A stretch of 64,000 bases of DNA from a virus. Taxonomy: Duplodnaviria; Caudoviricetes. Within the stretch, counting starts at the first letter, position 1; each line of letters starts with the position of its first letter. This document shows positions 181 through 24,339 of this stretch, piece after piece. Where the stretch lies: positions 1 to 64,000 of the IMG/VR virus record IMGVR_UViG_3300028805_002025. The stretch is one strand, 5' to 3'. The position numbers were made by a program, and so were the translations under genes. Below the pieces are notes generated by a model, which did no database searches, was not told where the DNA came from, and saw only the letters and a program-made list of their open reading frames with translations.

Positions 181-217
181 AAAAAAAGCACCACAAACGC
201 TAGGCTTGTAGTGCTTT
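181..217 (-). terminator. intrinsic terminator
   Basis: AAGCACTACAAG...TTTGTGGTGCTT hairpin followed by a T run. Confidence 0.7.
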
Positions 218-223
218 ATATTG

Positions 224-526
224 TTAGTCTTCGGTAACAGTTCTAAGGCTGCTAAAGACATGATCGTGACCGTGAACAGCGATTGCTGTGGTCTTATTAT
301 CGAGATCCGGCTCGTTGAATTCAGAGTAGTCAATGTCAAGGGCATTGAGCCTCATCTTCCATTTACGAACATCAGCACTCAAGTAAATAAGGTACTGGTT
401 ATCCCAAGTCTGGCATGGGTGCTCAAGCAACCACTGTGCCACTGCGTGTCCACCTTGTACACATCCGTAAACTGGTCTCAAGCTTTTGTCCACCAGGACA
501 TACAGCTTATTCTTTTTCTTCTCCAT
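224..526 (-). CDS. peptidyl-tRNA hydrolase 2-like protein
   Basis: LYVLVD..L...GCVQGGHA and EPDL...TAIA motifs of the PTH2 family; likely start is MEKKKNK at 526. Confidence 0.65.
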   Translation of the reverse strand: MEKKKNKLYVLVDKSLRPVYGCVQGGHAVAQWLLEHPCQTWDNQYLIYLSADVRKWKMRLNALDIDYSEFNEPDLDNKTTAIAVHGHDHVFSSLRTVTED

Positions 527-830
527 CTGTCGTTGCAAATTGGTTATACTTGTTAATGACTGCATTTTTGAACGAAGGTGCTGCCACCTTGTCAGTCCAA
601 TCACCGCCAGACATACCATACCAACGACCACTAAAGAGCATCTTACGGCAACGAGTCTTAACTTCGTCCTCCAGGTAATTATCACGCTCTTCCCCGGTTA
701 GCCTGTGCTTGAAGATGTAGTACGCCACATAGTCAGCGTGATCCTTCTCACGATCTGACTTAATATACTCCTTAAACTTGAGGTATTGTTCCCTCGTCGT
801 AGTCTCACTTGTAAAAATTTTCTTTTCCAT
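507..830 (-). CDS. hypothetical protein
   Basis: 107-aa ORF overlapping the PTH2-like gene. Confidence 0.7.
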   Translation of the reverse strand: MEKKIFTSETTTREQYLKFKEYIKSDREKDHADYVAYYIFKHRLTGEERDNYLEDEVKTRCRKMLFSGRWYGMSGGDWTDKVAAPSFKNAVINKYNQFATTDGEEKE

Positions 831-895
831 TTTGATGTAATTTTAATTGTTTGTTATTGATTTGTTTTAACTCTCGACTCTCACTAATCTCCCAT

Positions 896-979
896 TCAAG
901 TTAAAATCACATCCGGACCACGAATCTGTCTCAGCTACCAGAACTGGTCAGATACCTACCAAAAACTGTTCTTTTTCAT
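896..979 (-). promoter_or_regulatory. putative leader ORF with two in-frame TAG codons and an IRGP motif
   Basis: reads MKKNSFW*VSDQFW*LRQIRGPDVILT*. Confidence 0.45.
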
Positions 980-1015
980 TGCTGTTTACTTTTTAAATTA
1001 TTATTACTAAAAATC

Positions 1016-1072
1016 GGAATCTGCTTGTCTTCGGCTATTTTCGGTGCTGAATATAAATTGCTGTAAGATTCC
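1016..1072 (-). ncRNA. ACAGCA-stem RNA 1
   Basis: GGAATCT-T-ACAGCAA...AGATTCC terminal stem. Confidence 0.65.
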
Positions 1073-1077
1073 TAGTG

Positions 1078-1150
1078 TAGCGAAAATGGGAGTTGAACCC
1101 ATTGTTGTCACCTTATGAGAGTGCCGTAAGAACCGTTCTACGCTTTCGCT
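1078..1150 (-). tRNA. tRNA-Met/Ile2 (CAT)
   Basis: cloverleaf, anticodon loop CTCATAA. Confidence 0.8.
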
Positions 1151-1159
1151 ATGTTGCAA

Positions 1160-1244
1160 GGGAACTACGATTTGTTGGAATCGAACCAACTGTTCTGTTT
1201 TCAAGACAAAATTACTACCCAAGAGAAACTTGCTGTGAGTTCCC
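1160..1244 (-). ncRNA. ACAGCA-stem RNA 2, with Ser(TGA)-like anticodon arm and T arm
   Basis: GGGAACT-C-ACAGCAA...TTTGT CTTGAAA ACAGA...GTTGG TTCGATT CCAAC...AGTTCCC. Confidence 0.7.
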
Positions 1245-1249
1245 ATAAG

Positions 1250-1322
1250 TGGAGCTGAAGAGAATCGAACTCTCCCACGAACCTTGCAAAGGTCCATCGC
1301 CAGCCTTGGAACATGCAACCCC
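1250..1322 (-). tRNA. tRNA-Ala (TGC)
   Basis: cloverleaf, loop TTTGCAA. Confidence 0.85.
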
Positions 1323-1375
1323 AAATTGTCAGTCAGAAGGAATCGAACCTTCATCATACATCCGTCATGTTGACC

Positions 1376-1702
1376 TTAAAGAATTTCGACGACTTTGCCG
1401 TAGATCTGATTCCTGGATACCCAGCCGTTCATATGTCCGTGATTGTTTCCTATCAGATACTCCTTGTCATTTCTGATCGCATGGATCAAATGCAGGTAGT
1501 GATGTCCTCTCACCTTACATAGAACAATGTCTTTCTTCTTTAGCGTCGTCTCGTCAGTTACAGGCTCACAGATCACTGGTTGCCTGGACTTCAAAATAGG
1601 TGTCATGGAATTACCAATCCCAGTCACCTTACACGTCTCACCTCCTCTGAGGTGATTGCAGGTTTCTTGATTCTCGAACCCGCTGTAACTAAAATCTCTC
1701 AT
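1376..1702 (-). CDS. S24/S26 peptidase-like protein
   Basis: GNSMTP motif followed by DIVLCK...H. Confidence 0.6.
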   Translation of the reverse strand: MRDFSYSGFENQETCNHLRGGETCKVTGIGNSMTPILKSRQPVICEPVTDETTLKKKDIVLCKVRGHHYLHLIHAIRNDKEYLIGNNHGHMNGWVSRNQIYGKVVEIL

Positions 1703-1872
1703 ATGTTATATAAATTAGGTTCGCTTACCTAAAGCAATCGAGACTCTTGCAAGTTACATAGTAGTATCTCCTCATTTCTGGGCGGGGAACTCACTTGTCC
1801 AAGGGATTTATTTTACCCGCTTACCTCCGATTCACACGTGCTCCGCTTTTCTACTATATAAGTCTCAATGTG

Positions 1873-2007
1873 CAGGGCCAGAAGGATTCGAACCTCCGTC
1901 GTTTATCATTTCCTGGATACGTGCTTTGAAGCGTCAACGCTTTCCGAAGTCAGCGTGTATAGTACCAGGTCGTAACAAATTGTTTTAGACCGCTAAACTA
2001 CAACCCT
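1873..2007 (-). ncRNA. tRNA body with a ~80-nt structured insert replacing the anticodon arm
   Basis: acceptor AGGGTTG/TGGCCCT, D arm and T arm intact; insert CCTGG...GCTGACTTCGGAAAGC...CCAGG. Confidence 0.6.
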
Positions 2008-2019
2008 ATAAAAATACAA

Positions 2020-2990
2020 AAAGGCTGAGAATTTGACCTTAATGTTGATGCCTTTATACAACGGTTGGACGTTGCTCTTCACACGCCACCTTACGATGGA
2101 CGTAGACACCATGCACGATAGTTTTGCGAAAACCACCAAACTCTTACTGATTTAAACCTTCCGGTACAGAATCATAACATTCAGTTCACCACCACGCTCT
2201 TGCGGACTCACAGGATGCCTCCTGTTAACGCAGATGACTACTTTTACTCGTTCATCGGATTCCTTGCAAGTCCCCGATGCCTCCATTTTGCAGGAGAGAT
2301 AAGTGCATTTTATCTGCTCAGTGTCGCACACTTTCGCTTTTAATCTTTATTTTAAAAGACGACAGGATTCGAACCTGTAACACTCGGCTTTTGAGGCCAA
2401 TGCTCTACCGTTGAGCTACACTTTCCCAACTAGTGGAAGACGAGGTGCGACCCTTAGCATCCGTGCCTTTTGAGCACAGCCCACTAAATCGCCTTCCTAT
2501 GCCAAGACCACCACAGTCCTGTAGCACTAATACCCATCCTCAGCCTTACGGTTCTTAACGCTTATAGGCTACGCCCTTTCACGTTAAGACGGATGTTTAT
2601 CTGAACCCAACCCGCCAACTGGTGACTATTGAATCGGGAACAACAAGATGATCTATTGTATCGCTACTCAACCAAAGCGGTTAACCTTGGTAGTACGTCG
2701 CACCGTTTTACCTACGGAACTCCGTACCGCATCCTGTTCTTTTCAGTGAAATACCCCGGTTTCCCGGAACATCTGAGTCGGGCTAGTTGACAATCTCCAA
2801 CTCATTTATCCCATCACTGGATTATCCTTATGGCTACGAAAGCTAGCCAGTCTCCTCGTTTTCAGCCGAAGCCTACAACGTGGGAGGTCTTTATGCCAAT
2901 CAGATACTTAGGAAGCCTCGTCACCGTAAGGGTATCTTTTAGTCAACGGACAACTCCCTATCCGTCTATCCCCTAGCCAGTGTGACTGAC
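2020..2990 (-). ncRNA. GOLLD-like large ncRNA with an embedded tRNA-like element
   Basis: ~970 nt without a long ORF, hairpin-rich, inside a tRNA array; CTCAAAAGG and 3' AATTCTCAGCC resemble GOLLD as I recall it; not model-verified. Confidence 0.55.
2354..2425 (-). tRNA. tRNA-like element (CAA loop, weak acceptor stem) inside the GOLLD-like RNA
   Basis: D, anticodon and T arms present; acceptor stem degenerate. Confidence 0.5.
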
Positions 2991-2996
2991 ATGTTG

Positions 2997-3111
2997 TTGA
3001 GAGTGCAGAATTTGCATCTGCGAAGCTTCCGAAGAAGCACATTACTCACGAAAGCAATGCCCAGTTGTCTACATCTGGTACGTGTACCAGTTCTCCTTTG
3101 GTAACTCTCAA
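2997..3111 (-). ncRNA. novel tRNA-shaped RNA, copy A
   Basis: 8-bp acceptor, AGGAGAA-hairpin-ATGTAGACAA D region, long variable arm, TGCAAAT T loop. Confidence 0.75.
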
Positions 3112-3272
3112 ATGTTCTTTTACGCTAAAGAATAACGTATCGATGGCACGATTTGTTTTTTTGTATACAAAGAGTCAATTGCCTCTAAGTAAACTCAATT
3201 CTGTAATTTTAGGAACATTGGCCACTGTTTCCCAAGCATTAACGTGCCCTTCAGCCTTACAGAATAATTTAG

Positions 3273-3384
3273 TTGAAGGAGGTGGATTTGCACACACCGA
3301 AGCTCCGAAGAGCACACTAAGCACGAACTTAGTGCCCATTTGTCTACATCGTCATTACTGACGTTCTCCTCTGGTATCCTTCAA
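3273..3384 (-). ncRNA. novel tRNA-shaped RNA, copy B
   Basis: same architecture with covarying stems. Confidence 0.75.
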
Positions 3385-3388
3385 ATGG

Positions 3389-3501
3389 TTGGAAGAGGCA
3401 GATTTGCACTGCCGAAGCCTCCTTAGAGGCACATTAAGCACGAACTTAATGCCGATTTGTCTACATCCGGATCTCTCCGGTTCTCCTCTCGTATCTTCCA
3501 A
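3389..3501 (-). ncRNA. novel tRNA-shaped RNA, copy C
   Basis: same architecture. Confidence 0.75.
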
Positions 3502-3505
3502 ATTG

Positions 3506-3619
3506 TTGAGAGAGTGGGATTTGCAAACCACGAAGCTACGTTAAGTAGCACAGTATTTACCATACTGCCCATTTGTCTACATCTATCATTGCTGATAGTT
3601 CTCCTCTGGTATCTCTCAA
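3506..3619 (-). ncRNA. novel tRNA-shaped RNA, copy D
   Basis: same architecture; anticodon-position loop GGTAA. Confidence 0.75.
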
Positions 3620-3624
3620 ATGTG

Positions 3625-3698
3625 TAGCGGCACACAGGAGTCGCACCTGGTGTTTTTTGCTTATGAGACAAACGTGTAAACTGTTTCACTCTGCCGCT
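3625..3698 (-). tRNA. tRNA-Met/Ile2 (CAT)
   Basis: TTTGT CTCATAA GCAAA arm. Confidence 0.75.
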
Positions 3699-3808
3699 AT
3701 GTTTAAAACATGTTGTTCGTCCGTATGAAGCTTCATCAACACTCTGCAATCGTTTCAGCAGTCATAGCTTAACAGTGGTACTTGTTATCAACATGTTTAT
3801 ATTTTTAA

Positions 3809-3882
3809 GGAAACGTGCTCCGAATGCGACTTTTTATACAACTTAAAATATTCAAGTAATTTGTATATTGCTGTCCGTTTCC
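3809..3882 (-). ncRNA. ACAGCA-stem RNA 3
   Basis: GGAAACG-G-ACAGCAA...CGTTTCC. Confidence 0.65.
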
Positions 3883-3957
3883 ACTAGTTTTATTTCTTAC
3901 GGTGCAAAGATATATATTTTTTTTCGTAATTCCAAATTTCTGAGGAACTTTTTTTTG

Positions 3958-4215
3958 TTAATCTTCGCTAATTACGCCTTTGACCTTTTTCAACTCGGCT
4001 AGCATTCCATTAAGTTTATCCCCATCGAAAGTGATGTCGTATGACTCCTCCTCGATAACCTGGAGATTGTCCCTCAAGATGCTAACCAGATCTGCCTTCA
4101 GTGCTGCATGATATTTCACACCGACGATCTTCTGAGCTTCTTTCTTGTCGTAACCCGCATCGACCAAGTTCTTATACAAGGTCTGTCTAAATTCACTATC
4201 TAATATCTTGTCCAT
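3958..4215 (-). CDS. hypothetical protein
   Basis: likely start MDKIL, just downstream of a host-type promoter. Confidence 0.65.
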   Translation of the reverse strand: MDKILDSEFRQTLYKNLVDAGYDKKEAQKIVGVKYHAALKADLVSILRDNLQVIEEESYDITFDGDKLNGMLAELKKVKGVISED

Positions 4216-4314
4216 TTTACTTGTTTTGTTTAACAGTGCAAAGATATATATTTTTTTTCGTATTTCCAAATTTCTAAGGAACTTTTTTTTCGAAAAAGTG
4301 AATTTTTTTTATCT

Positions 4315-4675
4315 TGGTGGACCTGGTGGGAGTCGAACCCACGTCCAAACTACCATCCCATAAGAGATTATACAAGCTTTTCAATTTTTGGCAAGAGGTT
4401 TTCTTCCTCAGAACGTTTTATATGTGTCGCCGTCACAGGGGGATGACTGGAAAGGTCATCTTGACCACCACCTCATTTTGAGAAAACGAGGAAAACAAAT
4501 TACCAGGATGTTCTGTTCCTAAGAGCCTGGCCTCTCGGCTTCGCTTACGCTGCTACAGCGTATGCATAAGCAGGAGAGAAATCTATCTCGCCGTTTATAT
4601 TTTTTCGCTATTTCTAGTGTATGCCCACTGCTTGTCTCTTACCAAACGCATAGCTGTCTATTCCGTTTCAAGCCC
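4315..4675 (-). ncRNA. ssrA: tmRNA
   Basis: acceptor GGGCTTG/CAGGTCC with G3.U70, T arm, ACCA end; tag frame GEIDFSPAYAYAVAA* at 4592-4545. Confidence 0.92.
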
Positions 4676-4737
4676 ATTTGTGTAAGATAAATATAATAAT
4701 GTATCAGAATATTCAAAGATCACTTCTTTTTTAAGTG

Positions 4738-4850
4738 TTGAAGGAGCTAGATTTGCACTAGCGAAGCTTCCGAAGAAGCACATCAAGCACGAACTTGATG
4801 CCGATTTGTCTACATCTGGATTGCTCCAGTTCTCCTCTCGTATCCTTCAA
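4738..4850 (-). ncRNA. novel tRNA-shaped RNA, copy E
   Basis: same architecture as copies A-D. Confidence 0.75.
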
Positions 4851-4851
4851 A

Positions 4852-4929
4852 TGGTGTTGGTGGAGGGACTTGAACCCCCGACCTCCTCGGTATCAGCGAG
4901 GTGCTGCTAACCAGCTGAGCTACACCAAC
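4852..4929 (-). tRNA. tRNA-Ile (GAT)
   Basis: loop CTGATAC, encoded CCA. Confidence 0.9.
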
Positions 4930-5038
4930 ATGTTATAGGATCGATTACCCTGTTTGCCGGATTAGGCTATCACCAGCGTTTCAGAAACTTAGGTCTGCGT
5001 TCTCACTCTTAAACTATCGCAGAGCAATCTCCTATTTT

Positions 5039-5602
5039 CTATGTATCATAAGCAGCAATGAACTGCCTCAGTATATCCTTCCTCTTCATAACGCCCGTTG
5101 GGATGCAACGCTTCAACGCTTCTTCGTCGTTGTTCATAATCATATGCCTCACCTTCGTGGCTGAGATATTGTCAGCAATTGTTCCCCTGGCATTCAGTTT
5201 AAAGGAAACAAAGTTCCTTGTGATGAATGGTGGAAACCAGAGCATGATAATCTCGAATCCATCTGAGTAATAGATGGTAAACTCCGGGGATCTGGTGATA
5301 CCGACAATCTTACTATAGAGGTAGAAACCCCAATCGTGAGAGTTGTCAGATTCATCCGTAAGATCATCAAGAGGACGAATGTCTATTCTTCCGGCATCGT
5401 CGCCGAACTTCTCGGTAACAGCCTCCATAGCCATTTCCAACCTCATATTGATGGGGATTGGATTCCTCTTGTTGAGTTTGTCTGCTGATCCTACCAGGAC
5501 GAGTACCTTGTCGTTCTCGTTGAGTGCCTGGTTAATCAACTCCAGATGCCCATTATGTATGGGCTGTAATCTTGCGATTATTACGCCTACTTTTTCTGCC
5601 AT
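5039..5602 (-). CDS. nicotinamide/nicotinate mononucleotide adenylyltransferase (NadM-like)
   Basis: RLQPIHNGH, GSA, NP and ISATKVR motifs; start MAEKVG. Confidence 0.8.
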   Translation of the reverse strand: MAEKVGVIIARLQPIHNGHLELINQALNENDKVLVLVGSADKLNKRNPIPINMRLEMAMEAVTEKFGDDAGRIDIRPLDDLTDESDNSHDWGFYLYSKIVGITRSPEFTIYYSDGFEIIMLWFPPFITRNFVSFKLNARGTIADNISATKVRHMIMNNDEEALKRCIPTGVMKRKDILRQFIAAYDT

Positions 5603-5627
5603 CTTACTTACTTCTTTTTTAAAAATC

Positions 5628-5692
5628 GGAAGCTGTTTTTTTGGATAAATGTTTACAAAAGTCATGTCCTATTACAATTGCTGTAAGCTTCC
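5628..5692 (-). ncRNA. ACAGCA-stem RNA 4
   Basis: GGAAGCT-T-ACAGCAA...AGCTTCC. Confidence 0.65.
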
Positions 5693-5722
5693 TGGTGTGG
5701 GATTCGAACCCACTGTTTCCAG

Positions 5723-5800
5723 TGTATGGTGATGGATTCGAACCATCGTGTAAATACTAGTTTGTAGGACTAGCCCCTTCAACCGCTTGGATAACCATAC
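5723..5800 (-). tRNA. tRNA-Val (TAC)
   Basis: CTAGT CCTACAA ACTAG arm. Confidence 0.8.
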
Positions 5801-5837
5801 ATGGTGCAAGATAGACCTTATAGAATAAATCATCTTG

Positions 5838-6730
5838 CGCTGAGAATTTTAATATGTTTTCTCAAACATCCCACGTTTACTGAACTTGTGGTTCTAAACT
5901 GACCGATTTCCAACAAACCGATGAAAGCTCCGTCTCTTCCGAAGTGCCATCTATGGATCTGTACAAGTCACGTGACCCTTCCGGATGTCTTTTGGACATT
6001 CCTGTGCAGATCTTTCTACGGTTTTCATCCTCCTTCCGAAGTCAGAGTCCTATATTACCCGTATTGTGGGCGTAGTAGGATTTGAACCTACACATTTGCT
6101 CTCCCAAGGAGGAAAGCCCATACCCTCGTATGCGTTACATAACACCCATTTAAAAACTAGGCATCTTCGAAGTGAGCTTATCTGGAATAACTCTATCGGT
6201 AACAGTACATGAGAAAGGCGTGTACAGGGTGTCTTAGCGTTTACCCAGCCAATCTACTTTCGGTGATACCGACTTATCTCTCTATCCATTGAAGGCGGGT
6301 GGAGTAAATCTTGCTACCACGCCAATAAGCAATGCCTAGCTAGTGCTTGCGGAGAGGATTTGAACCTTCTGTTTCAGTTCAGCTGTTGTCAGCCTCTATC
6401 TGCGTTTATACCTATTAAACTTCTCAAGCATTTGGGACCGTTTGTTATTGAAAGTGTGACTCGGCCTTTCAAGGAGACCCGAAGGTTTCTTATGACACGC
6501 TGCTCGTTGGTATCAATGATTCCTACTATTACGGTTCTCTCCTCCCACTTGTAACGTTGGCATGAACTTCCTGTCCACAAATTACTTTCTTTGAACTATT
6601 CTATCTCCCGCCGTATATCGCAGTTGCTTCTATTCCGGTAAAATGTGTCACCGACAGGCTCGATGCCAAGATGCCTTTGTTGGTTATTTCTTAAACCAGC
6701 CACTCACAGTGTCCACGATGGGATCTTTGT
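5838..6730 (-). ncRNA. cluster of unidentified structured RNAs and degenerate tRNA-like elements
   Basis: no convincing ORF; T arms at ~6067-6147 and ~6344-6430; stem-closed unit 6156-6339; repeated ACTTCGGAAG motif. Confidence 0.4.
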
Positions 6731-7378
6731 ATTTGTGACCAAACCAACCGATTGCTATGCAAACTATTGTCTCAATCATTGTCTTTAATTTTAATGTTAA
6801 ACTTCCGTTTCTGAATTACAGTGCAAAGATATATATTTTATTTCGTAATTCCAAATTTTTGAGGAACTTTTTTTGTTAAAAAGTGTTTACTCATCTTCCA
6901 ACTGTTTCATCATATCCCTTTTCAACGTTCTCCTCAACATTGTTTGACCAGCCTTTTTAATCACATGTCCGCAATGCCCAAGACTCTTATGCTTCTTGTT
7001 GCCAGAATGTGTGTTATGGTCTTTCGTTGGATAAGTAAACCCCTGCCTGTATGTCCAAGGCATAACCATATTAAGTAATTTCCATCCAGTCATATCTTCT
7101 GTTCAACTTTCTAATTAATTTCCTCACCATCCTTTTTCCTTCTCTGGTGATTGCCTTTGCTGTCTCCTCGTCGTAAGGTAAAAAATGCGTAATCATATTC
7201 TAAATACAAATTTTTTTAAATATAACATAGAGTCCGCTGTGCTTGAATCTGACACCGTAGATGTCCATCCACCAGGCAAGTCTCTTATGATACAACTCTA
7301 TTGCTTTTTTTCTCGGTTTGACGAAAATCGTCGTACAGACCTCAAAGAGTCTGTTTCTGATAAAAGACTTCGGAACTC

Positions 7379-7591
7379 TCATATTCTCTTATGTTTTACA
7401 ATGTTTTTAATTAAATAAATAGGCCAGAATAACCACAGCCCAAGCAGGAATAAACTGGTTACCCCTCTGTCCGGGATGTCATTATCGACAAGTTCATCAT
7501 ACTCTTTCTTATAGTCCTTAGCGAACCAGTAGAACGCTAGTACGAATCCGATCACGAAATAACTGACCCCAATAATAGTACTAATTTCCAT
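7379..7591 (-). CDS. small membrane protein
   Basis: two hydrophobic segments, FWP motif. Confidence 0.6.
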   Translation of the reverse strand: MEISTIIGVSYFVIGFVLAFYWFAKDYKKEYDELVDNDIPDRGVTSLFLLGLWLFWPIYLIKNIVKHKRI

Positions 7592-7610
7592 AACTCCTCT
7601 GTTTATTAGG

Positions 7611-7684
7611 CAGAGGTGGAGGGACTCGAACCCCCACTAATTCGGTTTTGGAGACCGACTGACTAACCGATTGCCGACACCTCT
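7611..7684 (-). tRNA. tRNA-Trp (CCA)
   Basis: loop CTCCAAA. Confidence 0.88.
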
Positions 7685-7691
7685 ATTACTG

Positions 7692-7779
7692 CTCGCCGGG
7701 TGCGATTCGAACACACGGTAACGTAAAACGCTACGGCAGTTTTGGAGACTGCTGGGTTAAACCACTCCCCCACCGACGA
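7692..7779 (-). tRNA. tRNA-Trp (CCA), long variable arm
   Basis: loop CTCCAAA plus variable-arm hairpin. Confidence 0.8.
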
Positions 7780-7788
7780 ATTTAAATA

Positions 7789-8490
7789 TTATGTTGCCCC
7801 TTCGTATTCAAACCCCTTGTCCTTTACATCTGATACGAACTGCTCGAAGTCACCCATATCGATAGCCAGATCACCAAGGGTACTTACCTTGTTCTTATTG
7901 TTGTTCTCATGTATAATCTGCTTGATTGGGCTACTTTCTTCCTCTGTATTAACATCAGCACAATAGTTTCTTGTTTTCGTATCAATTGCCTTGATGATGT
8001 TTGGGATTCTGAACTCACCGAACATTAGCTTTACCTCGTCAGCATAGTGCTGGGTGAAGAAGTCCTCAGTACAGGTAACGTACAGTGGCTGCTTTGACTG
8101 ACCCCTGCATACCTCTATGCAGTTTGGGATCTTTGTGTGGTATGGGTTTTTCGCTATGCCAATCACTGACAGGTGATGCTCGTATTTCTCTGCGATTGCC
8201 TCCTGTAGCCTCTTTCCAAGACCTGGGACTCTCTCACCCTCGTCGTTCACGACCCAGACGAATCCATCCACTACTATGCTAGATATTGCATCTACGTCTA
8301 TCTTCTCAAGGCACTGCATAATGCAAGGCAGTTCACGCTTATAAAGCTCACCTGGCTTGTACTCAGCATCTATTCCCTTCCTCCGGCTGCATACATAGTA
8401 TTTTACTTTCTCGGATGCCCAAGTTTCAAACACTCCTGCAACTGTATAGGAAAAACCATCGTAATAATATGTATCAAACGCTACTATCAT
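7789..8490 (-). CDS. endonuclease V-like protein
   Basis: AFDTYY, YKPGELYKRELP, VDG, IGIAK motifs. Confidence 0.8.
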   Translation of the reverse strand: MIVAFDTYYYDGFSYTVAGVFETWASEKVKYYVCSRRKGIDAEYKPGELYKRELPCIMQCLEKIDVDAISSIVVDGFVWVVNDEGERVPGLGKRLQEAIAEKYEHHLSVIGIAKNPYHTKIPNCIEVCRGQSKQPLYVTCTEDFFTQHYADEVKLMFGEFRIPNIIKAIDTKTRNYCADVNTEEESSPIKQIIHENNNKNKVSTLGDLAIDMGDFEQFVSDVKDKGFEYEGAT

Positions 8491-8963
8491 AACAGATAAC
8501 TTCTATCATATTTGTCCCACGATAAGGTGATCTTACACCTCTTTGTACACCAACGGCTAATTAAGCAACAACTATCACACGAGTAGTCTGAGTTGACCTC
8601 GAACCTAATAGCGAAGCCAGTATTTGTAAAGGAGTTGTTCACCTTCTCCTGTAGCATACCGACACATTTGTCCTTTACCTTTATGGCTCTTTTCCTAAGA
8701 GGCTTAGGTAAATAGAACTTAACTCTAGTGTTTCTGCCGTCCTCGGAGATAGCATTCTGAACTTTCTCCTTATAGACGGATCTGATGTAGTCAATGATGT
8801 CATTGGCGAGTGCTTCCACACTCTTCTCCATCCTGTCTTTCTCAGCCTTTGCTAGTTTTCTAGCGGTTTCAGCCGTGAAGTCATACATACTACTTTGTTG
8901 CATATCTGAATGGATATTTACAATGTTCACACCTAAATACTTCTCCGTTCTCGTCAATAGCAC
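8487..8963 (-). CDS. hypothetical protein
   Basis: 158-aa ORF; true start may be internal. Confidence 0.6.
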   Translation of the reverse strand: MLLTRTEKYLGVNIVNIHSDMQQSSMYDFTAETARKLAKAEKDRMEKSVEALANDIIDYIRSVYKEKVQNAISEDGRNTRVKFYLPKPLRKRAIKVKDKCVGMLQEKVNNSFTNTGFAIRFEVNSDYSCDSCCLISRWCTKRCKITLSWDKYDRSYLL

Positions 8964-9100
8964 GGGCGATGTTAATCTCCGTGTCCTGGTGACATTTTGG
9001 GCATTTTACTATCATATTTCAAACGTTTTTAGTTACTACTGCGCAAAGATACTGAAAATATTTCAAATATCAAAGGATTTGCTTATTCTTTTAACGTCTT

Positions 9101-9307
9101 TTAATCCTTTTCTCTAGTGAACCACCAGAACCCTACAGAGATCCAAGATCCAAGCGAATCTATCACGATCATAAGCAGGACATTGTAATCACTCGTAGCC
9201 GTATTCGGGTCGATCCTGTTCTTTAAGCACCACTTCTTGAACTCGTCTGTTATCAGAAACAGGGCTACCACAACTCCAACGACGTATATGTACCAAAACA
9301 CATTCAT
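9101..9307 (-). CDS. small membrane protein
   Basis: two hydrophobic segments. Confidence 0.55.
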   Translation of the reverse strand: MNVFWYIYVVGVVVALFLITDEFKKWCLKNRIDPNTATSDYNVLLMIVIDSLGSWISVGFWWFTREKD

Positions 9308-9330
9308 AACACTCTACTTTAATTAATATG

Positions 9331-9402
9331 AGGCTCTAATGAGAATCGGACTCATGCCTAAGCTTTACGAGGGCCTCGTTCTACCACTAAAACTATAGAG
9401 CC
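9331..9402 (-). tRNA. tRNA-Thr (CGT)
   Basis: loop CTCGTAA. Confidence 0.8.
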
Positions 9403-9407
9403 AAATC

Positions 9408-9492
9408 TGGAGCTGGGGACAGGATTCGAACCTGCGCTGTCTTTCGAACATGATTACAAATCAAGTGCCTTCAACCTCTCAGCCACCCCAGC
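9408..9492 (-). tRNA. tRNA-Thr (TGT), long variable arm
   Basis: loop TTTGTAA, variable-arm hairpin, encoded CCA. Confidence 0.8.
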
Positions 9493-9522
9493 ATTATTTA
9501 ATTCCATCCAGCTCATTTGATG

Positions 9523-9593
9523 AGGCTAAGCCCAGAATCGAACTGAGGCTGCATCTATACCACAGATGCGTTCTACCATTAAACTACAAAGCC
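9523..9593 (-). tRNA. tRNA-Thr (GGT)
   Basis: CATCT GTGGTAT AGATG arm. Confidence 0.75.
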
Positions 9594-9597
9594 ATTA

Positions 9598-10020
9598 TTA
9601 CTCATACGTCGTTTTCTCTCCTCCAAGCATTATATACTCGTCTTCAAGTTTATCATATTCACTCATAAGGTCATATAACTCATCCTTTCGTTTATCATAC
9701 TCCTTAGAACATTCTTCATGATGCGCTGGATGGTCACAACCAAATAATGCATCCCTCATTTTAAGTGCTGCATTTGCAATCTTAATCTTCATATCCGTGA
9801 GATTATGCTTAAATTCAGCAGCCTTATTGATTATCTCATGCTCTTTTACGCCTTGATATAGAATGTCACCAACTCTTATCGAATAAGAATTCTTTTCTTC
9901 ATCATATGATTCTATCTTACCAGTAAGGCGTTCAGTACCTTCGTACTGTAAATCAGTATTACAATAGTACTCCCATATCTCCCAATTGAAGTCTACTGTT
10001 TTCCCAATCTCGTATTTCAT
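9598..10020 (-). CDS. hypothetical protein
   Basis: likely start MKYEIG. Confidence 0.65.
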   Translation of the reverse strand: MKYEIGKTVDFNWEIWEYYCNTDLQYEGTERLTGKIESYDEEKNSYSIRVGDILYQGVKEHEIINKAAEFKHNLTDMKIKIANAALKMRDALFGCDHPAHHEECSKEYDKRKDELYDLMSEYDKLEDEYIMLGGEKTTYE

Positions 10021-10038
10021 AACATTCTCCTTTTTTTG

Positions 10039-10111
10039 AGCCTCCAGTCGGGGTCGAACCAACAACCTGCGGTTTACAAAACCGCTGCTCTGCCAATTGA
10101 GCTATGGAGGC
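10039..10111 (-). tRNA. tRNA-Thr (TGT)
   Basis: canonical cloverleaf. Confidence 0.92.
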
Positions 10112-10117
10112 ATATAA

Positions 10118-10245
10118 GGGTACACAATTCCGTCATTTCAACCCCTCCAGATTTGATTTATATTTGCGGAGGGGGTGGGAGTCGAACCCACGTTACACAA
10201 ATTAACCGTTTGTTGTATGTAATCTTATACTTGCTGTCTGTACCC
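10118..10245 (-). ncRNA. ACAGCA-stem RNA 5, permuted tRNA-like with GTT arm
   Basis: order: stem, ACAGCAA, ACAAA CGGTTAA TTTGT arm, T arm, CCCCTCC/GGAGGGG closed acceptor, stem. Confidence 0.75.
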
Positions 10246-10252
10246 ACAATTT

Positions 10253-10747
10253 TTATCTTCTCATTCTGTCTCCGAATACTCTCTCGTATTCGTCTTCAAC
10301 CATTTTTGACCAGTGCATAGCCTCTCCTTCTGGGGTTTCTTTGCAGCCCTTTTCCCATAACTTTTCGAGTCTATTCTCGCCAAGAGCCATGAGTTTACAG
10401 GCATATTCCGGTGTGATCTTGTGTACTCCGCAATGTTCACTTGAACAGCAGCTACCACCATAGTATTCACCTGCACAGGCGTATTTCCTGGTTGGATCTA
10501 GTGCGTAATGGGGATAGAAGATTTCGACGTTATCGTGGAAATAGTCGCCTTCCTTGTCGAAGCATATATCTATCTTCTGAACGATGCCTGGGAGCATATT
10601 ACAGGTCTCAACCCAATCTCCAACCTTATAGTCTACCTTAGACAGCATATCTTTCAGAATGTCGTCAATCTCCTTCTGTGTAAACCTCGACTTTTCTTTC
10701 TCTTCAAAGTCGAGTATTTCACAGAAACCCTTATCGCAATCATCCAT
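10253..10747 (-). CDS. hypothetical Cys-rich protein
   Basis: likely start MDDCDK. Confidence 0.65.
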   Translation of the reverse strand: MDDCDKGFCEILDFEEKEKSRFTQKEIDDILKDMLSKVDYKVGDWVETCNMLPGIVQKIDICFDKEGDYFHDNVEIFYPHYALDPTRKYACAGEYYGGSCCSSEHCGVHKITPEYACKLMALGENRLEKLWEKGCKETPEGEAMHWSKMVEDEYERVFGDRMRR

Positions 10748-10769
10748 TATCGTAACATTTAAAAATTCG

Positions 10770-10851
10770 TGCATCGTGTAGGACTCGAACCCACGTCGTG
10801 ATTACTCACACAGATTAAGAGTCTGTTGCATAACCTCTCTGCCAACGATGC
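10770..10851 (-). tRNA. tRNA-Lys (CTT), long variable arm
   Basis: loop CTCTTAA, variable arm GTGAGTAATCAC. Confidence 0.8.
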
Positions 10852-10862
10852 ATATGAAAATG

Positions 10863-10953
10863 TGCTTCCACAGGGAGTCGAACCCTGCTATTCGGTTTAA
10901 AAGACCGATGTAATCCGTCTGTCTCCAGGCACTTACCGATATACGATGGAAGC
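10863..10953 (-). tRNA. tRNA-Lys (TTT), expanded D loop
   Basis: loop CTTTTAA; roughly 18 extra nt in the D loop. Confidence 0.75.
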
Positions 10954-10957
10954 GTAT

Positions 10958-11033
10958 TGGTATGCCCAGAGGGACTCGAACCCTCGACCCCGTGATTAAA
11001 AGTCACGTGCTCTACCAACTGAGCTATGGGCAC
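10958..11033 (-). tRNA. tRNA-Lys (TTT)
   Basis: canonical, encoded CCA. Confidence 0.92.
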
Positions 11034-11057
11034 ATATTGCGATACAGAATATCTTTG

Positions 11058-11130
11058 TGCGCCTGGAGGGATTCGAACCCTCGACCCCATGTTTAAGAGA
11101 CACGTGCTCTACCAGCTAAGCTACAAGCGC
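11058..11130 (-). tRNA. tRNA-Lys (CTT)
   Basis: canonical. Confidence 0.92.
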
Positions 11131-11260
11131 ATTTGTTTGTATCCTTCCTATGACACTCATAGCTTCAACCTAGTTGACCATCCGTAGAGCGTCACTTTCG
11201 CTTTTTACGTTTATAAACCATTACAGTTCTCATATGCTTATTATTTTTTAAAATTTGTTT

Positions 11261-11506
11261 TTACTTTATCTCAATTAATGAATCGTTCTCATTTGCCTTT
11301 CTAATCCACCTCATAAGAAGCAGAGCTTTCTCAGTTGGTTTGAATGCGGCTGTCTCACCGACATCATGCTTGTCTGACAAGTCAATCTCAAGCTGGTACT
11401 TCGTACCGTCCACTGCCATGATGTGATAGACTGCTATACCACCAGACATAATGTACTGGAGCTGTGCTGTCCCCTTCACAAGAGGCTTAATATCGTTAAC
11501 TACCAT
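11261..11506 (-). CDS. hypothetical protein
   Basis: 81-aa ORF. Confidence 0.65.
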   Translation of the reverse strand: MVVNDIKPLVKGTAQLQYIMSGGIAVYHIMAVDGTKYQLEIDLSDKHDVGETAAFKPTEKALLLMRWIRKANENDSLIEIK

Positions 11507-11801
11507 ATCTCTTTTTTATTTCATTCAAAAATTTATCTCTATTGCTGACCTTAGCTGTCTTCTTACCCTTTTTCTCTTCAAGATACATACGTGTGTATAT
11601 TCCAACAAGTACCGCATTAATGACGGATAACACCAGGAACAAAATATATAATAACGTAACACCTGTTCCATAATCCTTTATGGCTAACATAGACATAAGA
11701 GAAAAATTGATAATTGAATTAAACAATTTACCCTTAATACTGTCAGTAAACATTGTAGCTATTGAAAAGCCAATAAGAATTAAAACCACTAATCCAAACA
11801 T
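11496..11801 (-). CDS. membrane protein
   Basis: three hydrophobic segments. Confidence 0.6.
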   Translation of the reverse strand: MFGLVVLILIGFSIATMFTDSIKGKLFNSIINFSLMSMLAIKDYGTGVTLLYILFLVLSVINAVLVGIYTRMYLEEKKGKKTAKVSNRDKFLNEIKKRYGS

Positions 11802-11825
11802 AACACTATTCTTTTAAAATTACTG

Positions 11826-11910
11826 CGGAGGGCAGTGGAGTCGAACCACACCCCTAGTGGAGCGAAACAACTTAGCAGGTTGCCCCTATCACCGTCAAGG
11901 CTTACCCTCC
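11826..11910 (-). tRNA. tRNA-Ser (GCT)
   Basis: loop CTGCTAA, long variable arm. Confidence 0.9.
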
Positions 11911-12405
11911 ATTTTTATAACGTTTATCTCTACTACTTTTACCCCTATTCAATGCCATATAGTTTTCTGTCATTGCATGACAGTTGGGACAAAGCAGCTT
12001 AAGGTTCTCGATTGAGTTATTACCGCTATCACCATCAATGTGATGAATTTGTAATATCGAATTACCAGTAGCTTTATTATATCCCTCAAATCCACATTCT
12101 TGACATTTATTGTTATACTTTTCTAATAAGTATTTTCTAATGCTGATTGGAAATGATACATTTGGGTTTATCTTATGTTCCCCTTTTAACCATTTTTCAA
12201 TATATAATGATATCCCATATTTTGAAGAGCAACTAGGAGAACAGAATTTAGCGTTTTTATACCCAATGAACTTCTTTCCACAAACCCCACAAACATGTTC
12301 ATATTTTGCGTGAGTTCCTTCAGAGGTACATTTCACTGAGCAATATTTTTGCTGTTTACCAGTCAGCTCTTTTCCGCATACTATACAATACTTTTTTTCC
12401 TCCAT
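11902..12405 (-). CDS. HNH homing endonuclease
   Basis: CxxC repeats; LQIHHIDG..NN..ENLKLLCPNCH; low GC; overlaps the 5' end of tRNA-Ser. Confidence 0.9.
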   Translation of the reverse strand: MEEKKYCIVCGKELTGKQQKYCSVKCTSEGTHAKYEHVCGVCGKKFIGYKNAKFCSPSCSSKYGISLYIEKWLKGEHKINPNVSFPISIRKYLLEKYNNKCQECGFEGYNKATGNSILQIHHIDGDSGNNSIENLKLLCPNCHAMTENYMALNRGKSSRDKRYKNGG

Positions 12406-12518
12406 TCAATAATAATTTATAAATTAGATACTTTACATTCCACCATCCCGTACAACTGTAATGCTTCGCCTTGATTGAATGATACTACGCATTCGTTGCC
12501 GACGGTTACTTCTCCAGG

Positions 12519-12800
12519 TTATTTCCCCTGGTATGTCCTTCTGTATCTTAGTTCTCTTACATTTCTGTAATGTATCTTAAACCTAGCATGATGTTGAACA
12601 AAGTTCTTACCATTCCACGTATGATACGTTCCACTAAATATGAAGTACTCACCCCTAATCTCCATTTCTATTTTATTAGGATGTAAATGGTGATACTCTT
12701 TTGGTTCTTTACCTTCGTAAGGTCTGAAGTACCCGACTTCAATTGGCTGATGTTCTCTTAACCATTCAAATTGCTTTCTAGTCATTTTATCAACCGCCAC
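12519..12800 (-). CDS. hypothetical protein
   Basis: 93-aa ORF. Confidence 0.55.
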   Translation of the reverse strand: MAVDKMTRKQFEWLREHQPIEVGYFRPYEGKEPKEYHHLHPNKIEMEIRGEYFIFSGTYHTWNGKNFVQHHARFKIHYRNVRELRYRRTYQGK

Positions 12801-12832
12801 CCTGTGATATTGTCGCCCCCAACAGGGAAGGG

Positions 12833-13237
12833 CTATCTTGCCTTTCTGACCATCGTCCTCTGTAGTTCTCCAGTCCTCACAAATCCGAATTTGCTATAGA
12901 ACTCTTGAAGCTGGTCTCCACTCATTGCCATATGTGCGCATGGGCATACCAGCAATACAAAGTTGTAGTCCTTATGTATTTCCAGAGCTTTCTGGATTAG
13001 GGCTGTTGCAATTCCATTGCCTGCATACTTCTCGTGTACCAGTACCAATTTCATTACCATCAACTTACCATTTCCGTTGCAGTACTCTGCAAATCGGTTG
13101 TAGTACTTAGAAGACCCATCTTGGATTACCAAAGACCCAAGACTATGACCGTCTTCTTTCCTCTTCGGAACAATACATTTTTGACTAAACCGTTCGTCAT
13201 TAACTACTACGATGTCGTAATCTATCATTATTCTCAA
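12833..13237 (-). CDS. GNAT acetyltransferase
   Basis: VHEKYAGNGIATALI and FYSKFGF motifs. Confidence 0.8.
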   Translation of the reverse strand: MRIMIDYDIVVVNDERFSQKCIVPKRKEDGHSLGSLVIQDGSSKYYNRFAEYCNGNGKLMVMKLVLVHEKYAGNGIATALIQKALEIHKDYNFVLLVCPCAHMAMSGDQLQEFYSKFGFVRTGELQRTMVRKAR

Positions 13238-13256
13238 TTATATGAGTTAAACAATG

Positions 13257-13348
13257 CGGAGGTGGAGGGATTCGAACCCCCACGCCAGCTCATCACCGAC
13301 CTACTTGTTTTCAAGACAAGCCTCTTCAGCCATTTTGAGTACACCTCC
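13257..13348 (-). tRNA. tRNA-Ser (TGA)
   Basis: loop CTTGAAA, long variable arm. Confidence 0.9.
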
Positions 13349-13502
13349 AATTTAGTGATTAAATGACTCGCTTCTCTGGCGCATATCATTCTGCAACTTT
13401 TTTACTTATCAAGCCCCAGCCATAGGCAGCGATACCTTTACTCCTCACAGTATTCATGACTACATATGATTCTTCAAGGGTTGCATTATTAATCACTTTT
13501 TG

Positions 13503-13575
13503 TGGAGAAGGAGGGACTCGAACCCTCTAATATAGCTTGCAAAGCTATCAGTTTAGCCAGTTAGCCTACAACCCC
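13503..13575 (-). tRNA. tRNA-Ala (TGC)
   Basis: loop TTTGCAA. Confidence 0.85.
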
Positions 13576-13636
13576 ATTATGGTGCAAAGATATATAAAAT
13601 ATCTGAGAAATCCAAATTTTCAAAGAACTTTTTTCG

Positions 13637-13709
13637 CTGGGGAGGTGGGGTTCGAACCCACGACCAATAGATTAACAGTCTACTGCGCTAACCACTGCGC
13701 TACTCCCCA
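13637..13709 (-). tRNA. tRNA-Asn (GTT)
   Basis: loop CTGTTAA. Confidence 0.9.
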
Positions 13710-13831
13710 GAATTACAAGTAAGTCTTAGTCGTGATAAAGGGCAATTTCATCCCTAACGCTGCTCTTAAGCCTTGCACTTCCATTTGATTGGAAGCATGT
13801 CTGTCTTCCATCATACCACTCTTACTTGTTG

Positions 13832-13907
13832 CGGGCACAGAAGGATTCGAACCTCCAACCCTCGGCTTAACAGGCCGTCGCTCTAACCATTAAAAAGCTA
13901 TGCGCCC
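13832..13907 (-). tRNA. tRNA-Asn (GTT)
   Basis: loop CTGTTAA. Confidence 0.9.
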
Positions 13908-13919
13908 ATATATTAACTT

Positions 13920-13997
13920 TGGCGGTGCATACGGGACTCGAACCCGTGAATCTCCTCCGTGACAGGGAGGCATCCTAACCTACTGAACGAATGCACC
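13920..13997 (-). tRNA. tRNA-Asp (GTC)
   Basis: loop CTGTCAC, encoded CCA. Confidence 0.92.
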
Positions 13998-14005
13998 AAA
14001 TTCTG

Positions 14006-14082
14006 TGGGGCGGGGCAGAATCGAACTGCCGCTAACGACCTGGATTTTCAGTCCAGCGCTCTACCTACTGAGCTACCGCCCC
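14006..14082 (-). tRNA. tRNA-Phe (GAA)
   Basis: loop CTGAAAA. Confidence 0.92.
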
Positions 14083-14087
14083 CTATG

Positions 14088-14420
14088 TCATACGAAAATG
14101 TAATCCATTAGCTTATCCCACCATGTTTCATCTTCGCCATTCTCTTCATAACCATCAAGCCATCCTGGTGTTATGTCTGGCTCTGGATAACTTACCAACC
14201 TATGTGTAAGTTCATTCACTCCTCTCTCTGCCTCCTCCTGGGTAAGAACCTCCTGGATGTCCTCCTCTATCACCTCGAAGTGAAGCAAGAAGTCCTCTGT
14301 CTCAACCCCTATCGAGTCTACTACGTACCAGTGTTCGTTTATCTCGTTGGCTGTGTATTCCTCACCAGTCCTAAACGTTGACCTGTTGGTCTGCAACTGC
14401 TCTGTACATATCACCTTCAT
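14088..14420 (-). CDS. acidic hypothetical protein
   Basis: 110-aa ORF after a host-type promoter. Confidence 0.65.
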   Translation of the reverse strand: MKVICTEQLQTNRSTFRTGEEYTANEINEHWYVVDSIGVETEDFLLHFEVIEEDIQEVLTQEEAERGVNELTHRLVSYPEPDITPGWLDGYEENGEDETWWDKLMDYIFV

Positions 14421-14507
14421 ATAAACCCGATTTTGATTTTATGGTGCAAAGATATACAAAATTTTTGAGAATTCCAAATTTCTGATTATCTTTTAACACA
14501 TATTTAC

Positions 14508-14551
14508 AAAAAAAAGCTGCTGAATACTTTTTTGGAGTTCTTCAACAGCTT
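14508..14551 (-). terminator. intrinsic terminator (attenuator of tRNA array A)
   Basis: AAGCTGTTGAA/TTCAGCAGCTT 11-bp stem plus T run. Confidence 0.8.
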
Positions 14552-14594
14552 GGGAAATATATATATATAGTGAAGTAAGTGACTTTTTTACATA

Positions 14595-14726
14595 TTATAT
14601 CTCAGTATAACCATACAGCTGTTGTCCTCCCCCTGCATCAAAATTAGACGCAACAGAATCACTCCATTTACTTGATGTAGCAAATGTAGCATTGGTCTTG
14701 ACAATATTATTAACTGTTGTAATCAT
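14595..14726 (-). CDS. leader peptide A (43 aa)
   Basis: MITTVNNIVKTNATFATSSKWSDSVASNFDAGGGQQLYGYTEI*; contains CAACAGCT, complementary to the terminator 5' arm. Confidence 0.7.
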   Translation of the reverse strand: MITTVNNIVKTNATFATSSKWSDSVASNFDAGGGQQLYGYTEI

Positions 14727-14854
14727 AATTTAAATGAGTTTAATTTTTCTATAATTATATACTAATTTTCAAAAAGTACCTATTGTACCAAAATTTTTTT
14801 TACTTTTTTCTATTTCTAGTGCAAAGATATATATTTTTTTCGACAATTCCAAAT

Positions 14855-15612: not shown

Positions 15613-15639
15613 ATTATTCTCCTTTTAACTTAAAATTTG

Positions 15640-24320: not shown

Positions 24321-24339
24321 AATTGAAATATTCGTTTAT

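Follow-up and report, generated by a model that had tools for sequence, protein, structure and literature searches.

A probable leader-peptide attenuator at the junction of two phage tRNA arrays, with a leader spelled in the amino acids of the downstream array

Why should a short open reading frame (ORF) between two phage transfer RNA (tRNA) arrays be spelled, over its first 31 codons, only in amino acids carried by the tRNAs that follow it? This question is raised by the window analyzed here, i.e., the first 64 kb of the 241,681-bp IMG/VR record IMGVR_UViG_3300028805_002025 of an uncultured phage; completeness of the record was estimated at 75%. ARAGORN predicted 44 tRNA and transfer-messenger RNA (tmRNA) genes in the window, and some more tRNA matches were found by Rfam. 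The element in question, i.e., a leader ORF followed by an intrinsic terminator, is placed between an upstream array (array B) and a downstream array (array A), and the element and both arrays are read on the minus strand (Table 1). We regard it as probably a ribosome-mediated, i.e., leader-peptide, transcription attenuator at the junction of the two arrays. The grounds are its anatomy, its conservation, the restriction of its alphabet, the co-variation with a tRNA-Cys gene, and the alternative RNA pairings, each of which was observed in the window or in its relatives. An earlier note, made from the sequence alone, had described a 43-codon ORF, the limitation of its first 31 codons to 11 amino acids, an 11-bp terminator, and a pairing that could open this terminator; all four were recovered.

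Relatives of the leader were found in ~410-kb phage contigs, i.e., Bacteroidota-type phages, and in metagenome contigs. The single 43-aa peptide was too short as a query, and the search for homologous loci needed an alignment. A profile of six ORF homologues recognized 75 cluster representatives of 36-76 aa in a large protein collection, all of which are named only "hypothetical protein". By DNA scans and peptide-pattern scans, the leader ORF was located at 9 viral and 43 metagenome loci, so that the search in relatives proposed by the earlier note ended with an ORF kept in frame at more than 50 loci. Public phage records searched by blastn with positions 13900-15700 showed tRNA-level matches alone and no relative of the leader. 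The homologues were used as three sets, i.e., 30 sequences for alignment and structure, 41 distinct ORF DNA sequences, and 105 distinct peptides. At every locus with sufficient flanking DNA, the order was the same: ...Leu(tag), Arg(tct), Arg(acg), then the ORF and terminator, then a promoter with or without a small ORF, and then Phe, Asp and further tRNAs. Among the 41 DNA sequences, the ATG was invariant, the lengths were 126, 129, 132 or 135 nt, indels occurred in multiples of three only, and the stop codon (TAA, TGA or TAG) kept its position. This pattern of invariant start, in-frame indels and fixed stop argues that the ORF is probably translated. The leader of the relatives is 67-83% identical to that of the window, against 40-55% for the adjacent 110-aa ORF. 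No Pfam or PHROG family was detected for the 43-aa product at E <= 0.01.

The leader is divided into a sensor part and a tail by its composition. Residues 1-31 are drawn solely from M, I, T, V, N, K, A, F, S, W and D, all eleven are represented, and Gly at residue 32 is the first outsider. This run of 31 residues is the longest for the 11-letter set in all six frames of the whole record, where the runner-up has 25 residues; the best run within ORFs of at least 100 aa has 23. The set accounts for 61% of the residues of long ORFs, and the second-longest N-terminal run in 1,253 small ORFs has 17 residues. From codon 32 onward, every kind of residue is present.

The alphabet is also kept where the sensor varies. 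Across the loci, 51 of the 53 variant sensor states fall inside the set and both outsiders are Cys; across the 105 distinct peptides the count is 78/88. In the neighbouring ORF of the same loci, columns whose majority residue belongs to the set gave only 113/193 variant states inside (Fisher p = 1.6e-8 for the loci and 2e-7 for the 105 peptides). Of the single-base nonsynonymous neighbours of the consensus sensor codons, 56% fall in the set. The variable columns sample 6-7 residues, e.g., T, F, I, S, A, N, V in one and A, V, T, S, I, N, K in another. A comparison of the leader alphabet with a control had been suggested in the earlier note, and the outcome is in line with its expectation. Judged from these substitutions, the sensor alphabet is upheld by selection and not by mere inheritance.

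The residues that are shunned have close relatives that are used: E is avoided and not D, Q and not N, R and not K, Y and not F or W, and L and not I, V or F; G, P and H are avoided as well. No chemical rule giving this split was found. A base-composition rule for the allowed codons was also considered and rejected, as none fits: GAY is used and not GAR, TTY and not TTR, AGY and not AGR, yet both AAY and AAR are used. What the split does follow is the position of the tRNA genes. By ARAGORN and Rfam, array A encodes tRNAs for Phe, Asp, Asn (two), Ala (one), Ser (two), Lys (three), Thr (four), Trp (two), Val and Ile, together with the tmRNA. By Rfam or by eye, two CAU-anticodon tRNAs (1078-1150 and 3626-3698) and a fourth tRNA-Lys (UUU, ~10852-10945) were added. 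The tRNA list of the earlier note was thereby largely confirmed, but one tRNA-Ala was found and not two. Its statement that the array carries the same 11 amino acids and no others stands for all of the genes except one distal tRNA with a CAA anticodon (2353-2426).

The limits of array A were set by a terminator scan of the minus strand over positions 1-26000, where a hairpin of -9 kcal/mol or better was required to abut at least six T. Only three strong sites were found, i.e., 24134, 14515 and 187, besides a weak one at 24858. They lie before array B, between the arrays and past the final array A tRNA, and so divide the tRNA region into two terminator-bounded units, B and A. The sensor alphabet equals the amino acids of the whole array A unit, with the exception of the CAA tRNA. 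The codons read by the putative regulator match what the downstream genes supply, as is characteristic of a leader-peptide attenuator.

The two outsiders in the sensor alphabet provide a further test of this match. Sensor Cys codons occur in two clades and in two different columns, and each is one base change from Ser. Ten loci with a sensor Cys codon have downstream sequence, and in nine of them (L030, L041, L042, L051, L067, L069, L086, L088 and L089) a tRNA-Cys gene stands directly after tRNA-Phe. Among 24 loci without such a codon, tRNA-Cys was found at this place in two (L040 and L084). The association has a Fisher p of 1e-5 without correction for relatedness, which overstates its weight because the loci are related; the sound count is two independent gains. 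The composition of the leader hence tracks the content of the array, a check named in the earlier note, in the sense that sensor Cys is found almost only with a downstream tRNA-Cys. One relative without sensor Cys has its tRNA-Cys in the upstream array, between two Gly genes, and in lineages with Cys confined to the tail, the start of array A has no tRNA-Cys. In the 75%-complete record, no tRNA-Cys or tRNA-Tyr was found by ARAGORN. An Rfam-only match at 18921-19001 was considered as a tRNA-Cys and was rejected, as its anticodon loop reads GCC by eye.

The second half of the element is the terminator, which stands between the leader and the genes proposed to be regulated. It escaped the stock terminator scanner, whose loop limit is 8, since the actual loop has 16 nt. 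Its stem is near-invariant in the 30 homologues, with a compensatory A-U to U-A change in 8 and a G-C to G-U change in 9. The 5' arm of this stem has a second partner inside the leader. The segment CAACAGCU (14624-14617) complements AGCUGUUG (14550-14543) in a perfect 8-bp pairing, and CUCC in the loop of the terminator (14537-14534) is matched by GGGG (14633-14630). In the window, the predicted antiterminator consists of four stacked helices, i.e., these two, then UGG (14613-14611) with CCC, and then the ORF end and stop codon (14603-14589) with the AU-rich conserved 3' untranslated region (3'UTR). The fold has -27.9 kcal/mol, z = -2.7, and takes 28% of the ensemble.

This alternative pairing is conserved among the homologues. 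Its 6-bp core, RCRGCU of codons 35-37 with AGCUGU of the terminator 5' arm, is pairable in 30/30 homologues and grows to 7-10 bp in folds. When the nascent RNA was folded without the terminator 3' arm, the minimum-energy fold joined the 5' arm to the ORF core in 30/30. The 5' arm is near-invariant, as expected for a strand with two partners, and double compensatory changes therefore cannot be seen. Single changes in the tail do respect the pairing: a nonsynonymous CAG to CGG change (Q to R) keeps it as G-U, and the tail Leu codon is CUA, CUU or CUG and never UUA or UUG, which make up 34% of the Leu codons of the genome. In 29-30 of the 30 homologues, the GG that opens the conserved Gly codon is paired with CC from the UUUCCC block. 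The codons of the conserved tail residues Q36, L37 and G39 supply the nucleotides CAGCU and GG of these pairings, so that pairing of the RNA explains why the residues are conserved.

The effect of a ribosome was predicted by folding the nascent RNA for each codon with a mask over the ribosome footprint, which was taken to reach 15 nt upstream and 11 nt downstream from the first base of the A site. In these folds, the antiterminator survives while the A site lies between codon 1 and a last codon that varies among homologues from 29 to 33. With the A site at codons of ~32-41 it is absent, and only the final sense codon and the stop bring it back. The boundary at which the antiterminator is lost coincides with the end of the restricted alphabet within two codons in each homologue, in accordance with the stall positions expected by the earlier note. 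Because of this coincidence, stalls that would open the gate would be possible only on array-A codons, and the other codons stand where a stalled ribosome would keep it shut. A mutually exclusive antiterminator that depends on the ribosome position is thus predicted by computation.

From these features, the following sequence of events can be proposed. RNA polymerase would enter from the promoter of the leader or from array B and transcribe the 43-codon leader. The antiterminator would be built from the last 11 codons of the leader, the stop codon and the conserved 3'UTR, paired to the 5' arm and loop of the terminator. A ribosome that finishes the leader would cover the antiterminator strand, and the terminator hairpin would form and stop transcription ahead of array A. 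Should the ribosome be delayed at any of the codons 1 to ~31, the antiterminator would stay intact and the polymerase would continue through the 13-kb array A, which would yield Phe, Asp, Asn, Ala, Ser, Lys, Thr, Trp, Val, Ile and Met-type tRNAs and the tmRNA. As the sensor codons encode only array-A amino acids, only slow decoding of array-A codons would open the gate. We infer that the leader is translated, that translation and transcription are coupled, that the choice between the folds is kinetic, and that read-through raises tRNA output.

A second, putative leader was found ahead of array B. Its layout repeats that of the first, i.e., a small ORF, a terminator, a promoter and a tRNA block, and the amino acids of the ORF are those of the block. 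The 32-codon leader B contains a 17-residue run in E, P, R, Q, H, G and Y only, which are the array B amino acids and are complementary to the set of the first leader. In a scan for runs of the complementary alphabet, the run at 24290 was among the top matches. Leader B is followed by a terminator (24128-24160, minus strand, -18.3 kcal/mol), then by a promoter and then by array B, and it is conserved in three relatives (G002, G003 and G005). The comparison of the two leaders was made on the ORF, its composition, its conservation and the terminator that follows; their sequences are unrelated and their alphabets are complementary.

Several observations weigh against an attenuator. The main weakness is the conserved promoter 30 nt past the terminator (the earlier note had cautioned about it, and it was found at 14478-14447) together with at least five more promoters within array A. 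A promoter thus does lie between the terminator and the genes, where an attenuator should have none. With promoters past the terminator, array A does not depend on read-through, and the switch would only modulate the share of transcripts derived from upstream. It is a speculation that host promoters are shut off late, so that the upstream share could be the major one.

The folding results also leave difficulties. When the complete RNA of 13 homologues was folded at equilibrium, eight of them had the terminator as minimum-energy fold wherever the ribosome was placed; five showed a switch, with the antiterminator last present at codons 27-31. Equilibrium folding of the full RNA with the ribosome mask therefore gave no clean switch. 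As the two folds differ little in energy, kinetics would have to decide between them, as they do in known attenuators. In RNA free of ribosomes, the antiterminator, i.e., read-through, is predicted in 27/30 homologues, unlike in trp and his attenuators, and no conserved anti-antiterminator was found in the homologue folds. The geometry is accordingly not wholly of the trp/his type claimed by the earlier note. In addition, an A site on the stop or on the sense codon before it would uncover the core again in the simple mask.

The remaining points against concern the sensor and its match to the array. The sensor is conserved beyond the needs of a pure codon counter, as K20 and W21 are invariant and D23 is nearly so. 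It also contains a covarying helix: in the consensus fold of the 30 homologues, 6 bp join codons 2-4 with codons 25-27 (14720-14715 with 14654-14649). This helix has two covarying pairs, one with C-G to U-A in 5 sequences and one with A-U, G-U and G-C. The CAA tRNA of array A has no counterpart in the leader alphabet. H, R, L, P or E states occur in the sensor, although rarely, each in 1-2 cluster representatives, and locus L087 carries a sensor Arg. For Cys, the two loci having tRNA-Cys without a Cys codon have been given above, and L090 is the sole locus with a sensor Cys codon and no tRNA-Cys. Up to the end of tRNA-Phe, leader included, L090 and L042 share 97.8% identity; past it, L042 goes on with tRNA-Cys and L090 with Asp, Asp, Phe. 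The counterexample of L090 is either a recent loss or a chimeric assembly. Considered on its own, the divergence point of these two loci points to mosaic exchange or chimeric assembly at tRNA genes.

Three other explanations were weighed. The first accepts that the ORF monitors the decoding of array-A codons and places its output elsewhere than in read-through, i.e., in the stability or processing of the array-B transcript, in occlusion of the promoter at 14478-14447, or in recruitment of the phage tmRNA. The match of the alphabet and the co-variation of Cys link the ORF to the tRNA set and say nothing of the output. A strong promoter lies directly past the terminator, the terminator doubles as the 3' end of the array-B unit, and the tmRNA lies within unit A. 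Yet the conserved alternative pairing hits precisely the 5' arm of the terminator, and the loss of this pairing at codons >= 32 matches the alphabet boundary, which control of read-through predicts and other outputs need not. We therefore consider a different output unlikely.

The ORF could also be an ordinary small phage protein gene in a promoter-ORF-terminator cassette, whose biased N-terminus and proximity to tRNAs are inherited sequence and synteny. It owns a promoter and a terminator, modules of a terminator followed by a promoter exist elsewhere in the genome (e.g., 24160-24068), and the invariant sensor residues and the 67-83% identity across relatives would suit a protein. But a biased small protein does not explain why variable columns that sample 6-7 residues stay in the set at the frequencies given above, why Cys follows the tRNA-Cys gene, or why the conserved C-terminal residues coincide with RNA pairing. 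The exclusion of E, Q, R, Y and L but not of D, N, K, F and I is not physico-chemical, the product has no Pfam or PHROG family, and an ORF of complementary alphabet precedes array B. Such a gene seems quite improbable here.

Least probable, and by our estimate very much so, is that the 3' part, i.e., the 3'UTR block and the hairpin, was selected as a trans-acting small RNA like rnTrpL of the Sinorhizobium trp attenuator: ~75 nt from the 3'UTR block to the U-tract are near-invariant in 30 homologues that differ by 20-50% elsewhere, and small RNAs derived from 3' ends usually have a conserved single strand ahead of a terminator hairpin, yet the conservation of the block is already explained by its two alternative pairing partners, and the ORF alphabet would be left unexplained. 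Small RNAs derived from attenuators have been documented (PMC6614838). A trans-acting 3'-derived RNA is compatible with the switch and could coexist with the leader-peptide attenuator.

The proposed attenuator can be compared with known systems. At the gathering score, an Rfam cmscan of positions 1-25000 detected tRNA and tmRNA only, with no His, Thr, Leu or Trp leader and no T-box. Full-text literature searches gave leader-peptide attenuation for amino-acid, synthetase and resistance genes; for tRNA genes and phage tRNA arrays, they turned up neither leader-peptide control nor attenuation of another kind. To our knowledge, leader-peptide attenuation, a textbook mechanism, is known for amino-acid biosynthesis, one synthetase operon and some resistance genes, and not for tRNA genes.

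Among enterobacterial multivalent attenuators, the ilvGMEDA leader has Ile, Leu and Val codons, and the thr leader has Thr and Ile codons. As proposed for the phage leader, a short translated ORF contains codons of several amino acids, the antiterminator overlaps the 3' part of the leader and competes with an intrinsic terminator, and a stall favours read-through. In contrast, the phage sensor spans 11-12 amino acids over ~31 codons without runs of a single codon, and its terminator is followed by tRNA genes and a tmRNA, where the enterobacterial leaders have genes of biosynthetic enzymes. As no anti-antiterminator was found in it, the phage leader is predicted to allow read-through if translation fails, and a separate promoter lies past its terminator. 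There is no sequence or Rfam relation between these leaders and that of the phage.

The E. coli trpL leader contains two adjacent Trp codons, and its 1:2 hairpin causes termination without translation. In the phage, the terminator ends ~85 nt past the stop codon, a spacing of the same order as in trpL. In both, a ribosome at the end of the leader would block the antiterminator, and the decision would depend on kinetics and on coupling to transcription. The 5' strand of the phage antiterminator lies inside the ORF (codons 33-43), not after it as in trpL. The pheM leader of the E. coli pheST (phenylalanyl-tRNA synthetase) operon senses one amino acid and controls the synthetase. It is like the proposed phage switch in being leader attenuation of a gene of the translation apparatus, in which slow decoding raises decoding capacity; the phage element precedes the tRNA genes themselves and would sense the whole set that they carry. 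A T-box also reports the state of a specific tRNA by a choice between terminator and antiterminator, but it binds uncharged tRNA directly, without a ribosome or an ORF, and controls synthetase and amino-acid genes. The proposed mechanism is classical, and the regulated genes, the breadth of the sensor and the dependence on gene order are new.

Promoters around the element were recognized by the Bacteroidota consensus TTTG..TAnnTTTG, which matches the window at 23 sites (22 on the minus strand) against a chance expectation of 2.1. The upstream promoter of the leader is present in most relatives and is absent from the position directly upstream in L012/L026 and L034. Between this promoter and the leader lies a conserved 5' element, which is either a 5'UTR element or a second, phage-type promoter. 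Its reading as a repeated phage promoter was rejected, as ATAATTATA in that context is unique in the 241-kb record. The 5' element of the leader is itself a variant of the motif TTATATTTATAATA, which has 13 matches at <=2 mismatches against 1.3 expected, 12 of them on the minus strand. The minus-strand sites include 24337-24350 (before leader B) and 58911-58924, and 11 looser matches were found besides. The matches that were read lie ~10-30 nt ahead of a start codon, relatives included. The motif may be a second promoter class or a translation element.

An exact copy of TTATATTTATAATA also precedes a 22-codon ORF, rich in Leu, Gln and Arg, at ~58837-58905 (minus strand), upstream of array C (Leu x4, Gln x2). 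It was considered as a third leader before array C and was rejected as probably not conserved, since three complete relatives lack it and have the end of a protein gene there. As a side observation, a terminator-like 8-bp hairpin CACCGUGA...UCACGGUG followed by U7 was found at 58520-58560 (minus strand), after the array C promoter and before the first tRNA-Leu.

The 110-aa ORF between the switch and the first tRNA has no Pfam or PHROG family and gave zero matches as a probe for relatives; it is replaced in L014 and nearly absent from L034. In the complete relatives L017 (G002), L019 (G001) and L021 (G004), array A is closed by a CUA-anticodon tRNA, called "Pyl" by ARAGORN. This tRNA would be a reader of amber codons and hints at amber suppression or recoding in those phages. 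No CUA-anticodon tRNA was found in the window. The CAA tRNA of the window was tried as its homologue and was rejected, as it showed no similarity past the T arm to the tRNAs of four relatives. Two uncalled segments (6343-6431 and 16534-16634, minus strand) are 92-95% identical to relatives that are otherwise ~70% identical. The first holds a T-arm-like motif, and both are probably further structured array RNAs.

Table 1. Positions of the leader element and of associated features in the window
Feature	Position	Strand	Description
Host-type (Bacteroidota sigma-A-like) promoter, TTTG..N..TAnnTTTG	14822..14853	-	Upstream of leader
5' element CTTTTTGA..N..TATAATTATAG AAAAA	14744..14776	-	Invariant TTTT and ATAATTAT blocks in 30 homologues
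Leader ORF	14726-14595	-	43 codons and TAA
Leader, sensor part	14634..14726	-	ATG and codons 2-31; confined to the 11 amino acids of the downstream tRNA genes
Leader, tail	14595..14633	-	Codons 32-43 and TAA; alphabet unrestricted; RNA forms the 5' strand of the predicted antiterminator
3'UTR block CACUUACUUCACUAUAUA..UUUCCC	14552..14581	-	Near-invariant in 30 homologues; 3' strand of the inner helices of the predicted antiterminator
Intrinsic terminator	14508..14551	-	11-bp stem 14551-14541:14524-14514, 16-nt loop, U8 (T8 in DNA), -14.5 kcal/mol
Second host-type promoter	14447..14478	-	Right after terminator; kept in all relatives read
110-aa ORF	14088..14420	-	Between switch and first tRNA; variable
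Array A, putative gated unit	185..14082	-	tRNA-Phe (14082-14005) to tRNA-CAU (1150-1078); tmRNA 4675-4315
Class-I tRNA, anticodon CAA, nominally Leu	2353-2426	-	74 nt, short variable arm
tRNA-shaped gene	1873-2007	-	Rfam tRNA, 34 bits; ~60-nt insert replaces the normal anticodon loop; no assignable anticodon
Closing terminator of array A, strong	217-185	-	
Leader B ORF	24320-24222	-	32 codons; 17-residue run in E, P, R, Q, H, G, Y only; precedes array B
Strong terminator site	24134	-	Just upstream of array B
Strong terminator site	14515	-	Between arrays B and A (terminator of the leader)
Strong terminator site	187	-	Past last array A tRNA

The element touches on open questions of the field, i.e., what controls the tRNA genes of phages and why nearly complete tRNA sets are found in the large ones. 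If the proposal is true, the virus would gauge decoding speed directly and feed this back on tRNA production, by a compact, multiplexed natural sensor of translation capacity. The alphabet of a peptide would be dictated by gene order and not by protein function, which would be an unusual evolutionary read-out, and because it is set by gene order, the idea can be tested through comparative genomics alone. The proposal would also bear on the counter-measures of phages against host defences that target tRNA. As a general principle, toward which we lean only slightly, the tRNA genes of giant phages of Bacteroidota-type hosts may be partitioned by terminators into units, and a separate leader, written only in the amino acids of the unit, may gate each of them. 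The two complementary leaders found here cover most of the code. Decoding would then be monitored for each codon class and the matching block of tRNAs topped up, e.g., after cleavage or decay of host tRNAs, and the leaders would follow tRNA genes that have moved, as for Cys.

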